From the NCBI GenBank assembly GCA_963769025.1, contig CAVYKI010000002.1, forward strand, positions 382,364 through 446,363: DNA of 64,000 nucleotides, in the 5' to 3' direction. The position numbers and the translations under genes are program-made. This document shows positions 5,454 through 9,509 of this stretch, piece by piece (within the stretch, counting starts at the first letter, position 1; every line of letters begins with the position of its first letter). Under the pieces are notes generated by a model that saw nothing but the letters and a program-made list of their open reading frames with translations, made no database searches and had not been told where the DNA came from. This stretch comes from an uncultured Verrucomicrobiae bacterium (GTDB lineage Bacteria; Verrucomicrobiota; Verrucomicrobiia; Chthoniobacterales; Chthoniobacteraceae).

Positions 5454-5530
5454 GCACTCGTAGCTCAACCGGATAGAGCATCGGTCTTCGAAACCGAGGG
5501 TTGGGGGTTCGAATCCCTCCGGGTGCACCA
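5454..5530 (+). tRNA. tRNA-Arg (anticodon TCG)
   Basis: Cloverleaf: acceptor GCACTCG/CGGGTGC, D-arm GCTC/GAGC, anticodon arm TCGGT-CTTCGAA-ACCGA, T loop TTCGAAT, encoded CCA. Confidence 0.95.
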
Positions 5531-5560
5531 TCCCTTTTGCGCTGGGAGCCGCATGAATGG

Positions 5561-5842
5561 CTAGAGCACGCCTGATTCGAGATGCTCGAGGTAGATGAAT
5601 TCCGGTGACTTGACTCCCGCCTCTGCCCGAATTTTCACGAGCCTGGGTGACTCAAAAAAGCTTCTGGCTTCATCAATCGAAGTCCATGCCGAGAGGTGGA
5701 CGACTCGGTTGGGGTCCTCCTGAAACTTGAGAACCTGATATGAGCGTTCGCCGGCTGCTTTGCGGATGGTCGCGGCGGCATCGAAAACCTTCTTCCAGGC
5801 AGGGTAGTCGGCGACCTCGTGAATGATGAGAACGTGTTGCAT
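5561..5842 (-). CDS. small dimeric alpha/beta-barrel protein (antibiotic biosynthesis monooxygenase/cyclase-like)
   Basis: MQHVLIIHEVADYPAWKKVFD...AGV..PEFIYL pattern, 93 aa. Confidence 0.75.
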   Translation of the reverse strand: MQHVLIIHEVADYPAWKKVFDAAATIRKAAGERSYQVLKFQEDPNRVVHLSAWTSIDEARSFFESPRLVKIRAEAGVKSPEFIYLEHLESGVL

Positions 5843-5853
5843 GATGAAGCGGT

Positions 5854-6030
5854 TCACGCGCAAAGCAGTTCTTCCCCGAACAGCGCGATGTCGGCAGCGG
5901 CAGACTGAATCGCCAGGTCGAGCGGCAATCCTGCTTCCAGATAGATGTGGCTGAGAGCCGTCAGTCCATGCCTTGAATTGGCAGGATGATCCGGCGCGTC
6001 GGGTTCGAGTGTTTCGGTTTCGTGGTGCAT
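5854..6030 (-). CDS. small hypothetical protein (58 aa)
   Basis: ATG at 6030; protein-like helical C-half (LTALSHIYLEAGLPLDLAIQSAAAD); stops 11 bp before the next gene on the same strand. Confidence 0.55.
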   Translation of the reverse strand: MHHETETLEPDAPDHPANSRHGLTALSHIYLEAGLPLDLAIQSAAADIALFGEELLCA

Positions 6031-6299
6031 GGGGTTCGGCTTGGTGGAACCGCAGGCCAACGACGGGGACAAAAAGCCCACCGTCGTTGCCGAGCGGTGG
6101 GTTGTTGAAGAAAGACTGTTTGAGGAAATCAGAATCTCGTCCCACCGCGCAGGGCTTTCGCCCATACGGCAACGCGAACCGGCATCGAGCAAATGCTCTG
6201 CGCCTGGCGTTTGGCGGTGGTGGAAATGAGATGATTCACGGGTGAGTTTTCCTCGTAGCCGCGATCCGGGTCTCCGTCAATTCCGAGGACGCACCGACG

Positions 6300-6321
6300 G
6301 ATTGTGAAATATTTCACAATC
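6300..6321. promoter_or_regulatory. perfect 22-bp palindromic operator (CRP/Fnr- or Rex-type box)
   Basis: GATTGTGAAATATTTCACAATC fits TGTGA-N6-TCACA and TTGTGAA-N4-TTCACAA. Confidence 0.7.
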
Positions 6322-6479
6322 TCGTCTTGCAATCGGCGGGAGATCGGCGAATGTGAAAGCGTTCTGGGGGGAACAGCCCGGTCATTGGCCAATCGGTCGG
6401 TGATCGGGCACTTTTTTGTACCTGCGAGCCGATGCGCAGTTCAGCGGTCCCAAAAAGGGTACTCGGCGATACATCCGCC

Positions 6480-6565
6480 TCCCGTCCAGCCGCGATTCAG
6501 GAGGTGCTCCATTGGTCGAAGGAATACTCATCATGAGTCATCTGAGGTCGATGGAGCACTTTTTT
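6480..6565 (+). ncRNA. candidate small structured RNA, copy 1
   Basis: Stem GTGCTCCATTGG/TCGATGGAGCAC enclosing ACTCA-TCA-TGAGT, then T6; homologous to 7190-7264. Confidence 0.5.
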
Positions 6566-6693
6566 GGATTCGCGCCGCCTTGGGAATGCCCTCGGACCTT
6601 CACGCCGAGCGGACGGATTTTCCGCGATACGGGTTGTATAAAAGAAAAACTCAACACGGTGAACAAATGCGGCGCCGCATCCGTCGATCGGTC

Positions 6694-6885
6694 ATGAAGC
6701 AGACATTCCCCATTGAACTGGTGGGCGGCAGCCAGGATGGCGCCGTGGTGGACATCGAGGAAGCGCCGGAGGTTTTCCTCATCCGAGCCAGCGAGGGCCT
6801 GAGGGAGGTTTACAAGCGCCAAAACTTCGAGCCGCCTTTCATCTACCTGCAGGTGGGCTACGCGGTGAACGAGACTTCGCAATGA
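6694..6885 (+). CDS. small hypothetical protein (63 aa)
   Basis: MKQTFPIELVGGSQDG...; ATGA overlap with the next ORF. Confidence 0.6.
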   Translation: MKQTFPIELVGGSQDGAVVDIEEAPEVFLIRASEGLREVYKRQNFEPPFIYLQVGYAVNETSQ

Positions 6886-7124
6886 ACACGCTTCGTCGAG
6901 ATCCACGGGTCCACTTTCATGGTGAATCCACCCGTTCATTCAAAGTCGGGATGTTTCTGGGTGCCGTCATCGTCGCTTTTGTGGCGATGGGTGCCTACGC
7001 CCTTGCGGCGGGAGGAAGTGTGGCGATCACGGCCGGAGTCTCGAAACTGATTCTATTTCTGTGCGGAGTCGTCATCGCGATTTTGCTGACCCTTGCCGTC
7101 ATCGTCGGGAAGCAACCGCGGTAA
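6882..7124 (+). CDS. small membrane protein, DUF1328-like
   Basis: Two hydrophobic helices around GGSVAITAGVSKLILF, resembling the DUF1328 pattern GGIAGAAAGIAKILF. Confidence 0.5.
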   Translation: MNTLRRDPRVHFHGESTRSFKVGMFLGAVIVAFVAMGAYALAAGGSVAITAGVSKLILFLCGVVIAILLTLAVIVGKQPR

Positions 7125-7189
7125 GGCCGCACCGGCGCCGGACGAGCGCAAAGTCCCTAGCGAACAATCTTCGCAGCGATACATCCGCA

Positions 7190-7264
7190 CCGCGATTCAG
7201 CAATTGCTCCATTGGCCGAAGAAAACTCGTCACGGGTAATTCTGGAGTCGATGGAGTACCTTTT
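7190..7264 (+). ncRNA. candidate small structured RNA, copy 2
   Basis: Stem TGCTCCATTGG/TCGATGGAGTA enclosing ACTCG-TCA-CGGGT, then CCTTTT; 700 bp from copy 1. Confidence 0.5.
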
Positions 7265-7443
7265 GTCCGGGATGCCGCTGGCCTGCGGTGCTGAAACTCC
7301 GTCCATCTCCGGGAAAAGCGAGCGCTGGCAGGAAGGGGAGAGCCTCCAAAGAGCCGCGCGGCGCGCGAAGGGATTTGAATTTCGATATCCTACATCCGCC
7401 GCCGGGGGACTGCGCGATGCATCACTCCCAGGAGGAAAATCCG

Positions 7444-7722
7444 ATGAATGCTTCGCCTCTCATGATCCCCATCAGCGTCGGCATCTTGTATTTTGGCGGC
7501 ACCGCAAAAAGCGCGGTGAATGTCGCCAATGTTCTCTTTTCGATTTCGGCGTTGCTGCTTCTGGCCGCCGCCTTGGCGGACCGGAGCAGAGAAGTGATAC
7601 CTCGCAGAGGCCACCCCAGCCAGGTTCCCCCGGAGCCCATCGTTCATCACCACTCGTTCCTTCCCAAGTTCGCCTTCGTCATCGCCCTGCTGACCCTTGG
7701 CTCGTGCATTCATGAAAATTAA
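7444..7722 (+). CDS. small membrane protein, DUF1328-like N-terminus
   Basis: AGGAGG RBS; LYFGGTAKSAVNVANVLF resembles the DUF1328 core; extra C-terminal hydrophobic segment. Confidence 0.5.
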   Translation: MNASPLMIPISVGILYFGGTAKSAVNVANVLFSISALLLLAAALADRSREVIPRRGHPSQVPPEPIVHHHSFLPKFAFVIALLTLGSCIHEN

Positions 7723-7886
7723 TGGCAGTGCGGATGCGCTCGCCCTCGCCCCCACCTCCAAGGCACCGGATTGCAACTGATCGCCCTCGGCGACCGGCGG
7801 TTAAAACCTTCGCCGATACATCCGCCATCGATGTCCACCCCGATACATCAGCGGCCCCTGCGGGCAAACAACACCTTGATCCCACT

Positions 7887-8354
7887 ATGACACCACGCTT
7901 GCAAAAATCGGACATCCCGCACCTGTTGCTCATCCTCGGCCTCGCGATTGCACCTGTGATTTTCACCGGGTGTGACCGCACCACCCGAACGTCCGATTCG
8001 TTAACAACGCCCGACTCCATGGTCACATTCGGGAAGGTCGTCACCGCTGCAAACGTGGACTCCAACAACGCCCCCACTGCGCTTGCCGACACATTTTCAC
8101 CCAGCCAGAAAACCATCTACGTCGTCGCCGAGGCAAAACAGATCGCGCCCGGCACACGCATCGCCGCGAGCTGGACGCGCGATGGCACGCCGGTCGAAGT
8201 CTCCAAGGAAATCATTGCCAGCAAGGGCTACCACGACACGAACATCGAATTTCACCTGAATTCCGGCCCCGAGGGTTTCACGCCCGGGAGGTACAAGGTG
8301 GAGCTCATCGTCAATGGCACCGCTGGTCCCACCGCGCACTATACGGTCAAGTAG
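7887..8354 (+). CDS. lipoprotein with Ig-like beta-sandwich domain
   Basis: Lipobox IFTG-C; DTFSP..IYVV...W...PGRYKVELIVNG. Confidence 0.75.
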   Translation: MTPRLQKSDIPHLLLILGLAIAPVIFTGCDRTTRTSDSLTTPDSMVTFGKVVTAANVDSNNAPTALADTFSPSQKTIYVVAEAKQIAPGTRIAASWTRDGTPVEVSKEIIASKGYHDTNIEFHLNSGPEGFTPGRYKVELIVNGTAGPTAHYTVK

Positions 8355-8377
8355 TCCACCGAAAATTCCCACCATTT

Positions 8378-8518
8378 ATGAACCGATACTTCCTCTTCAT
8401 ACTCTGCGCCGCGCTGCTCCTCGCTTTCAACGGCTGCGCCACCACCGAACAGCGCACCTCTGGCGGATCCATCGCCCCCAGCGGGAGCGCCAGTGGATCC
8501 ATTGCCACCCACCGCTAG
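8378..8518 (+). CDS. 46-aa lipoprotein (not in the ORF track)
   Basis: MNRYFLFILCAALLLAFNG-CATTEQRTSGGSIAPSGSASGSIATHR*: signal peptide II with lipobox. Confidence 0.7.
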   Translation: MNRYFLFILCAALLLAFNGCATTEQRTSGGSIAPSGSASGSIATHR

Positions 8519-8651
8519 CTTCCCTTTCGCGGGCCAGGCACCCGCACGCCGGGACGCAGCCGCAGTTCCCGTTGTTTTCAAAATCATATGCCCCGCCCAT
8601 CCGCGGCGTCGGCCCTGCAGTCTGACTAATGGCGCCGAGCCTGCTGCAGCC

Positions 8652-9509
8652 TCACTTCCTTTTCGAACCAGGCTTCGCGATTTTGGCAGGCACCGCGGGC
8701 TTGGTGGTCCGGCCTGACTTCGACGACTTCGTCGTCCGGGCTGCCTTGGAAGTCCGGGCCATCGTGGACGACTTTGCTGCCTTTAGGACTGTCGCCGCCT
8801 TCGCCGGGGAATCCGAGCCCCGCGCATGGCGCTCCTTGTCCTGCAGCCGCTTCGCGTACATCTCGCATTTCGCGATCTGCACCTCCGGCGGGTCCGTGAT
8901 GTTCACCGGCTTCGCGCGGATGACCCCCAACGCCAGGGCCTCCGCGAGCCACTGCTGGCCTGCCGCTGAGGCGTAATGCCCCGCCTCCGCCCGGTTGCTC
9001 AAGAAACCGCACTCCACCAGCACGGCGCATCCGACTGTCCGCACCAGCACCGCAAAGTCCTGCGACGCGATCCCGCGGTTCGGCGATTCGTGCGACTCAT
9101 CCAGCGCCTCCAGGATCGTCCGTGCCACGAATTTCCCCGCGATGCTTTCCGGAAAATAGAACGTCGAAAAACCCGCCGCGCTCGTCCTCGACGACGCATT
9201 GAAGTGAATGCTCAGCAGCAGTGACTGCGGATACCGGTTCGCGATCTTCACCCGCTCATCCAGCGAAAGGTAAACATCCGTCCTGCGCGTCAGGATGCAC
9301 TTGATGCCGCTCTTCAGCAGCAGCTTCTCCAAGCGCAACGACACCGCCAGCGTCGTGTCCTTTTCCTTCACCTTATACCAGGCCGTCCCTTCGTCGATGC
9401 CCCCATGGCCGGCATCAATCACCACCGTATCAAATGCATGCACCAGCGGAACCGCCAGCAGCAACAGAACCACCGCGACGAGGACGGCGTTTGTTCGCGG
9501 AACATTCAT
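8652..9509 (-). CDS. N-acetylmuramoyl-L-alanine amidase (Amidase_3) with Lys/Ser/Ala-rich tail
   Basis: VVIDAGHGG, EKD, LSIHFNA, VLVECGFLSN zinc-amidase motifs. Confidence 0.9.
   Translation of the reverse strand: MNVPRTNAVLVAVVLLLLAVPLVHAFDTVVIDAGHGGIDEGTAWYKVKEKDTTLAVSLRLEKLLLKSGIKCILTRRTDVYLSLDERVKIANRYPQSLLLSIHFNASSRTSAAGFSTFYFPESIAGKFVARTILEALDESHESPNRGIASQDFAVLVRTVGCAVLVECGFLSNRAEAGHYASAAGQQWLAEALALGVIRAKPVNITDPPEVQIAKCEMYAKRLQDKERHARGSDSPAKAATVLKAAKSSTMARTSKAARTTKSSKSGRTTKPAVPAKIAKPGSKRK

Follow-up and report, generated by a model that had tools for sequence, protein, structure and literature searches.

Two copies of a non-coding hairpin, here called A and B, were compared in a window of 64,000 nucleotides (nt) from an uncultured Verrucomicrobiae bacterium (contig CAVYKI010000002.1, forward strand, positions 382,364 to 446,363); the window is that whole stretch, and all positions below are counted from its first letter. 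Judged from the sequence, A and B probably are a functional pair of terminator-type hairpins that is restricted to this species and was duplicated with its gene unit. The unit consists of a motif (CGATACATCCGC), the hairpin, in one case the small gene ORF63, and a gene for a DUF1328-like protein; since its old tandem duplication, ~ 100 non-coding bases have been conserved far more closely than the coding sequence. Our favoured reading, held tentatively and with somewhat less than even confidence, is that A and B are sibling short RNAs of ~ 70-85 nt ending at terminator-type hairpins. The coordinates of all features are collected in Table 1.

Conservation of the non-coding block

Copies A (6489-6568) and B (7189-7266) aligned over 81 columns with a mean column identity of 88%, and over 175 columns with 78% when flanks of 50 nt were added. 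A DNA search of the organism's own genome returned the same pair (80% over 75 nt, E 4.7e-11). The local alignment score of 88 was reached by 0 of 1000 shuffles, which scored 16.9 ± 3.5. The differences between the copies amount to 15 substitutions and several indels. The hairpin blocks are spaced by 700 base pairs (bp) and the upstream motifs by 710 bp, because copy A has a 10-nt insertion after its motif. Outside the block, identity was at background, both upstream (6300-6462 against 7010-7172; 177 of 300 shuffles as high) and downstream (6567-6660 against 7265-7360; 280 of 300).

The motif is identical between its first two copies at 12 of 12 positions, and the unpaired stretch CCGCGATTCAG, a candidate single-stranded 5′ part of an RNA, at 11 of 11. 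Since these two elements and the hairpin (88% identity, with every pair kept) persisted while the coding parts decayed, the non-coding block seems to be under constraint that extends beyond the stem. Two soil-metagenome DNA runs share 0.07 of the words of the locus; their contigs match pieces outside the hairpin stems, for instance 6302-6508 with 14 differences and 7004-7158 with none.

Predicted fold and pattern of substitutions

Both copies are predicted to form the same 20 pairs. The outer stem joins 6505-6516 to 6547-6558 in A and 7205-7216 to 7247-7258 in B, with TGCTCCATTGG(T/C) paired to G TCGATGGAG(C/T)A. All 40 cells (20 pairs in two copies) hold standard pairs, several of them G-U. 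The fold energy on the + strand was -36.0 kcal/mol for A (z -2.2 against shuffles) and -28.6 kcal/mol for B (z -1.8), and the minus strand of copy B folded no better than shuffles (z +1.2); the many G-U pairs make the fold strand-specific.

Each of the six substitutions at paired positions keeps the pairing. A single pair is altered in both partners (A-U to G-C), and four pairs are altered in one partner through G-U. A 1-nt indel lies on either side of the apical helix, at alignment columns 37 and 53. The homologous blocks 700 bp apart, the long stem with an apical hairpin in both copies, the two flanking indels, and the motif upstream and T run at the end of each copy had been described in an earlier note on this DNA, and all of them were found again here.

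We also simulated neutral change by scattering six random substitutions over the 40 paired positions. The full set of 20 pairs survived at P = 0.002-0.019 for transition shares of 0.5-0.8, and at ~ 0.07 (6.9%) if every change was a transition. The structure tested in this way was derived from the same two sequences, and the outcome for pair retention is suggestive.

Coding potential, known families and repeats

A single reading frame is common to both copies. It reads AIQEVLHWSKE in A and AIQQLLHWPKK in B, and every difference is non-synonymous (E/Q, V/L, S/P, E/K). The two 1-nt indels shift this shared frame, and stops follow within 10 codons, at 6534 and 7237. A frame of 61 amino acids (aa) from TTG 6512, with AGGAGG ahead of it, is present in copy A but not in B, and Pfam gave no match for it. 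The non-synonymous differences and the frame-breaking indels bear out the non-coding nature that the earlier note had claimed.

Cmscan of 5500-9000 and 6290-7320 against Rfam 15, with permissive filters, reached no gathering score, in line with the earlier view that the hairpins resemble no known riboswitch or ribozyme. The sub-threshold matches that touch A were Clostridiales-2 (6450-6526; 13.8 bits against 58.6, E 4.4) and, on the minus strand, the S4-Bacteroidia leader (13.5 bits against 34.7, E 7.8), and nothing in the scan overlapped copy B. A CsrA-type GGA motif, a tandem G-A internal loop and a pairing of Shine-Dalgarno with anti-Shine-Dalgarno sequence were considered and rejected, as they occur in copy A only and are not conserved.

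The organism's own genome comprises 5.34 Mb in 13 contigs and is an estimated 83% complete. Neither blastn-short nor R1, a covariance model built from copies A and B, found further hairpin copies in it. With two copies only, a dispersed repeat of the repetitive extragenic palindrome (REP) or miniature inverted-repeat transposable element (MITE) kind is ruled out. Integron attC sites and cassette-boundary repeats resemble A and B in that they are hairpin-forming repeats between small, co-oriented and unrelated-looking genes. The core sites of attC are RYYYAAC and GTTRRRY. No GTT or AAC triplet occurs in 6480-6600, hence these core sites are absent and an attC site was rejected; moreover, the genes that flank the hairpins are paralogs, unlike those of cassettes. 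No integron integrase in the genome reached the cut-off (for TIGR02249 the best score was 85 bits against 265, on another contig), and no recombinase or transposase domain was found among the neighbour genes scanned.

The upstream motif

The sequence GATACATCCGC has seven exact copies in the 5.34-Mb genome, three of which lie within the local stretch of 1.4 kb. Near-matches to the motif numbered 8 in the window against 1.6 expected. Every copy of (CGA)TACATCCGC stands on the + strand, ahead of a hairpin or a small gene. The motif is clearly local and fits none of the promoter or regulator consensus sequences considered; no counterpart was found in the loci of relatives.

Two promoter identities were rejected. 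As a promoter of the extracytoplasmic function (ECF) sigma type the motif is unsupported, with CGCC against the CGTC(G/C)AA -10 element of the ORF63 promoters and with a distance to GAAC-like stretches that varies (11-16 nt). As a sigma-28-type promoter, its GCCGATAC resembles the consensus GCCGATAA, but no TAAA lies at the right distance. A look-alike, AAATACATCC, in the relative G010 is coincidental and falls within a minus-strand coding sequence.

Duplication of the unit and divergence of its genes

The locus runs motif-hairpin-genes, motif-hairpin-gene, motif-ORF155, with three full copies of the motif and two hairpins. Unequal crossing-over is the likely origin of the duplication, with the motif copy ahead of the hairpin recombining with the copy ahead of ORF155. 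Such an exchange between motif copies flanking the first unit would explain why three full motifs accompany only two hairpins.

BLASTP gave no alignment between ORF80 and ORF92. Their gapped DNA alignment is collinear from ATGAA... to the C-terminal helix (GTCGTCATCGC...CTGCTGACCCTTG), and its score of 52 compares with 30.1 ± 5.2 for codon shuffles, 1 of 1000 of which was as high. On this evidence the two genes are taken as very diverged paralogs. The earlier note had held that the DUF1328-like genes downstream are far more diverged than the hairpins, and the lack of a protein alignment beside collinear DNA confirms this. A remnant of ORF63 in the second unit was sought but could not be demonstrated: the best tblastn match (E 0.004) is a non-collinear piece of 15 aa, and the DNA similarity was equalled by 234 of 1000 shuffles.

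ORF80 has no match to Pfam DUF1328 (PF07043). It aligned by BLASTP at 37% over 51 aa (E 2e-7) with the organism's own true DUF1328 protein, encoded on contig C9, which scores 49.8 bits for that domain (cut-off 27 bits). ORF92 stays below this cut-off with 14.3 bits (E 0.052), and no convincing homolog of it was found in 150 relatives. By their predicted sequences, ORF80 and ORF92 are DUF1328-like; neither reaches the curated cut-off that defines DUF1328 members.

The neighbouring H1 small RNA family

The small RNA gene H1 lies 140 nt ahead of hairpin A. Its region (6296-6425), with a terminator-like hairpin, was matched in 25 of 60 genomes of the bacterial family by DNA search alone. The sequence GTTCTGGGGGGAACA is invariant in the 29 distinct H1 sequences aligned and is predicted to form a 5-pair hairpin with loop GGGG; because its letters never vary, this 5′ hairpin receives no support from covariation. 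In the terminator stem, 12 of 20 pairs changed on both sides. Pairing holds in 98.3% of the cells of the whole alignment, and none of five measures was reached by any of 500 shuffles.

Searches used R2, the covariance model of the H1 family, with membership defined by the invariant 5′ hairpin GUUCUGGGGGGAAC, the terminator and a significant score. R2 found four H1 copies in the organism's own genome. Members occurred in 142 of 149 other genomes of the bacterial family (73 of 73 high-quality ones, the window's genome included). At the level of the order, 147 of 149 other genomes had a member, with all 16 sampled families represented; the two without one are 0.9-Mb genomes. Outside the order, three weak matches (28-35 bits) were obtained in 145 genomes of the phylum. 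A genome carries between 1 and 10 copies, some of them arranged in tandem at a spacing of ~ 310-330 nt.

The perfect palindrome TGTGA-AATATT-TCACA lies upstream of H1, at 6303-6318. Among 26 H1 loci of relatives, a TGTGA-N6-TCACA box was exact at 13 and had one mismatch at 6 more, with its centre 42 or 50-52 nt upstream of the invariant G; we take it to be a CRP/FNR-type box. H1 had no match in Rfam 15, and a full-text literature search for its motif string found no paper. To judge from these alignments, H1 is a strong new small RNA family, order-wide, multi-copy, strongly covarying and not in Rfam. It is the more notable object of the locus, compared with the hairpin pair, and deserves an entry of its own.

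Genes and setting of the locus

The segment 5400-8400 has a G+C content of 55-59%, against 62-68% in its flanks. It begins at a tRNA-Arg gene and carries only small genes and RNA elements.

Table 1. Features of the locus, with positions counted from the start of the window.
Feature	Position	Strand	Remarks
tRNA-Arg	5454-5530		
ABM-domain gene	5561-5842	minus	
Conserved small gene	5854-6192	minus	C-terminus ...YLEAGLPLDLAIQSAAADIALFGEELLCA; no Pfam match
Small RNA gene H1	6355..6428	+	invariant 5′ hairpin GTTCTGGGGGGAAC; covarying terminator stem 6376-6409; T run 6412-6417 (six T); promoter region from ~ 6300
Motif copy 1, CGATACATCCGC	6467..6478	+	26 nt ahead of the stem of hairpin A; followed by a 10-nt insertion relative to B
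Unpaired stretch CCGCGATTCAG, copy A	6490..6500	+	same as copy B; candidate single-stranded 5′ RNA part
Hairpin A	6505..6558	+	12-pair outer stem, 3 x 3 internal loop, 3-pair helix, 5-pair apical helix ACTCA/TGAGT, loop TCA
T run of hairpin A	6560..6565	+	six T, one base past the stem
Promoter-like element TGAACA-N16-CGTC	6660..6685	+	directly before the ATG of ORF63, downstream of hairpin A; read by eye
ORF63	6694..6885	+	conserved 63-aa protein; no Pfam match
ORF80	6882..7124	+	DUF1328-like small membrane protein; start overlaps the ORF63 stop (ATGA)
Motif copy 2, CGATACATCCGC	7177..7188	+	53 nt past the ORF80 stop
Unpaired stretch CCGCGATTCAG, copy B	7190..7200	+	from the alignment
Hairpin B	7205..7258	+	architecture as hairpin A; apical helix ACTCG/CGGGT
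T run of hairpin B	7261..7264	+	four T, preceded by a CC spacer
Partial motif copy 3, TACATCCGC	7391..7399	+	45 nt before the ATG of ORF92
ORF92	7444..7722	+	small membrane protein; AGGAGG 8 nt before the ATG
Motif copy 4, GATACATCCGC	7815..7825	+	ahead of ORF155; no hairpin after it
Motif copy 5, GATACATCAGC	7842..7852	+	ahead of ORF155; no hairpin after it
ORF155, lipoprotein gene	7887-8354	+	convergent amidase gene beyond

A search of 150 other genomes found homologs of ORF63 in 15, among them 13 of the 29 congeners (other species of the genus), and a paralog lies on contig C12 of the same assembly (314658-314834). The family members have ~ 62 aa and share FPIEF.GGS.DG ... PPF.YVQIGY..NETW. 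Each of 13 ORF63-family copies carries a TGAA(C/G)-N16-17-(C)GTC element that ends 8-20 nt before the start codon. The element upstream of ORF63 resembles what we take to be an ECF-sigma promoter, and its recurrence suggests that the ORF63 family may be under ECF-sigma control with a very short leader. The conserved small gene at 5854-6192 is 79% identical in DNA over 393 nt to a gene of the relative G001, where it also stands beside an ORF63 homolog and tRNA-Arg. ORF63 and ORF80 homologs are likewise adjacent in the relative G025, and no similar hairpin was seen by eye around that pair.

ORF63, ORF80, ORF155 and a fourth small protein recur in relatives in different combinations and places. 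Ahead of the ORF155 homolog of the relative G011 stand two small genes whose products, labelled by eye, are presumably DUF3309-like (hydrophobic) and CsbD-like; this arrangement hints at a general-stress setting for the gene set. Another conserved non-coding block, GGCGGCGGCCGGGGATTC.AACCCCACCCGG...GCCGCC, with several nested inverted repeats, lies ~ 150-200 nt upstream of ORF63 homologs. This block is present in at least four genomes (the organism's own, on contig C12 (L110), and those of loci L055, L058 and L061) and has no Rfam match at E up to 1.

Discussion

If A and B are sibling short RNAs, as the earlier note proposed, transcription would begin at or just after the motif and would stop at the U run of each hairpin. 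Each RNA would most likely be composed of the invariant unpaired stretch CCGCGAUUCAG, the long stem and the U run, and the product would act as RNA, e.g. by pairing through its conserved 5′ stretch. Both ORF63 and ORF92 have elements of their own past the hairpins (TGAACA-N16-CGTC before the former, motif copy 3 and AGGAGG before the latter), so that the U run would simply be the end point of a transcript begun at either of the first two motif copies. The position of A behind the H1 gene fits a wider pattern, as tandem small RNA genes are common in the order; in the genome G007, for example, three matches are ~ 310-330 nt apart.

OmrA/OmrB and the sigma-E-dependent RybB and MicA of enterobacteria are sibling trans-acting small RNAs that carry a single-stranded 5′ seed and end in a Rho-independent terminator. 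Like them, A and B are adjacent copies that would be ~ 70-85 nt long; conservation is highest in an unpaired 5′ stretch, after which come a hairpin and a U run, and they sit among small membrane-protein genes of a stress type. They differ in having a long three-helix hairpin and not a short GC clamp. Furthermore, no promoter was recognised and no target suggested for A and B, and no homolog was found outside their own genome.

Several observations weigh against sibling RNAs. The first group concerns the distribution of the hairpin. DNA searches of 100 relatives returned only chance pieces of 16-36 nt (best E 0.0017). R1 gave two weak matches and no real one in 149 relatives, the better of them (G090, 24.2 bits) within an open frame of 286 aa that has the same orientation. 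With laxer filters on the 29 congeners, the best R1 matches had E 1.4 and 2.1, and with filters off nothing fell below E 1.2 at four loci with ORF155 homologs. The exact-stem pattern TGCTCCATTGG-N28-36-GTCGATGGAG, which is blind to copies with covaried stems, had two chance matches among one genome per species (in Pseudomonas and in a betaproteobacterial metagenome-assembled genome), with unrelated interiors and no T run. The same pattern had four chance matches in metagenome contigs, of which two scored 10-12 bits with R1 and the other two gave nothing at E up to 1. A and B are therefore the only copies in everything searched, and the family proposed in the earlier note was not borne out. As homologs were not found, the argument for selection draws on two sequences and one compensatory pair. 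The covariation shuffle control, in which 237 of 500 shuffles reached the observed values, has almost no formal power with two sequences. Of the covariation claimed earlier, the preservation of pairing by the substitutions stands, but only one pair is compensatory.

The second group concerns expression and function. A scan of the sigma-70 type listed no promoter ahead of A or B. The CTTGCA-type -35 and -10 elements seen by eye before H1 genes have no counterpart before either copy, and A-rich or GAAC-like stretches upstream sit at varying distances from the motif. A search of sequencing runs found no RNA run containing the locus. The literature on small RNAs and terminators of Verrucomicrobia, as far as its texts were accessible, held nothing specific. 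Elsewhere in the genome, 11 sites match the reverse complement of the conserved 5′ stretch; all lie within long open frames and none at a start region, and they suggest no target. Hairpin B, with four U after a 2-nt spacer, would be a weak terminator, and it lies 81 nt past the ORF80 stop, where an ordinary operon terminator would sit. Lastly, gene conversion between the copies could mimic selection.

That A and B are simply intrinsic terminators, with no separate function, is unlikely, yet it deserves serious weight. On this account the ORF63-ORF80 operon terminates at B, A provides a second stop after H1 or was the terminator of a lost gene, and their likeness comes from the duplication. Both copies indeed have a stem followed directly or nearly so by a T run on the coding strand, as intrinsic terminators do. 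The place of B behind the operon fits, and no other terminator-like site was listed on the + strand between ORF80 and ORF92. Canonical hairpin-plus-U terminators are in use here, as the H1 genes illustrate, and selection for a stable stem alone would also yield structure-preserving substitutions. Nevertheless, the unpaired flank and the motif are identical while the loops and the neighbour genes diverged, and a plain terminator fits less well because it has no need of an invariant unpaired flank. A stands behind another strong terminator (6376-6409 and six T) with no open reading frame between them, and ORF92 is followed by the motif only and not by such a hairpin. The 54-nt composite hairpin of three helices also exceeds the definition of the terminator scan; that scan allows loops of 3-8 only, which is why A and B are absent from its list.

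It is improbable that the pair is a relic with no present function, in which a block of ~ 110 nt was copied later than the genes or homogenised by gene conversion, and the pairing reflects luck and a structure chosen post hoc. The existence of only two copies, with none in the 29 congeners, would suit an element that is young or fast-evolving, and nothing shows a need for it. Identity that falls to background right at the block edges is what a short secondary copy would leave, and the formal covariation control is powerless. These points are set against the fact that 0 of 6 stem substitutions break a pair (P about 0.002-0.02). The collinear order of hairpin, gene start and gene end in both units fits a single duplication of the whole unit, and a conversion cannot be recent because 15 substitutions and several indels separate the copies.

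Marginally less probable again are cis-acting leaders of the DUF1328-like genes, i.e. attenuators at which transcription from the motif stops at the hairpin unless a signal prevents folding. Attenuators usually take the shape of a terminator-type hairpin ahead of genes. The hairpin precedes a DUF1328-like gene in two of two cases (A before ORF63-ORF80, B before ORF92) and follows such a gene in only one of two. Against leaders, no anti-terminator pairing is conserved between the copies, and outside the hairpin the two minimum-free-energy structures are unlike. Neither a riboswitch nor a leader family matched, and no leader peptide is conserved. The start codons are 128 and 179 nt away, each gap holds the gene's own promoter-like element, and the ORF63 and ORF80 homologs of relatives have no such hairpin. 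Attenuating leaders had been offered as an alternative in the earlier note; the promoter-like element of ORF63 after A and the further motif copy between B and the ORF92 start weaken that proposal.

The slimmest chance belongs to descent from the neighbouring family, with A and B as decayed or re-purposed H1 paralogs, an idea that is compatible with the other readings. A and B share with H1 the strand, the tandem position, a similar size and a similar terminator tail (GCACTTTTTTG), and the 3′ halves of H1 and A are 148 nt apart from start to start. CATTGG, GGTCG.TG and GCACTTTTTTG are common to H1 and A (score 30 against 16.4 ± 3.4, 0 of 1000 shuffles as high), and the H1 model aligns A at full length in the expected register (6493-6576). 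On the other hand, the similarity is mostly that of the terminator tail. R2 with filters off gave A 5.9 bits (E 9.3) and B no match, compared with 83.1 bits for H1 itself; H1 against B was at chance (316 of 1000), and comparisons with flanks were unconvincing (38 of 1000 and 224 of 1000). Both copies lack the 5′ hairpin GTTCTGGGGGGAAC that is invariant in 29 of 29 aligned H1 sequences, and unlike H1 they occur in their own genome only. With no 5′ hairpin and no significant R2 score, A and B were not counted as H1 members.

The sibling-RNA reading can be extended to the locus as a whole. A and B would then be trans-acting sibling small RNAs driven by an undescribed promoter or operator motif (CGATACATCCGC) that they share with ORF92 and ORF155. 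The stretch of 6.3-8.4 kb would be a lineage-specific mini-regulon of small RNAs and small proteins of the envelope or of stress, which originated beside an order-wide small RNA gene through motif-mediated tandem duplication. We consider this combined picture conceivable but unlikely.

By itself the hairpin pair is a small matter. Its value is that of a natural experiment: within one old duplication, ~ 100 non-coding bases stay 88% identical while the coding sequence is nearly unrecognisable, and this assigns the constraint within the unit to the hairpin, to its unpaired flank and to the motif ahead of it. Should transcripts be confirmed, A and B would be among the very few small RNAs described for a poorly studied soil lineage, and they would provide a handle on the CGATACATCCGC motif.

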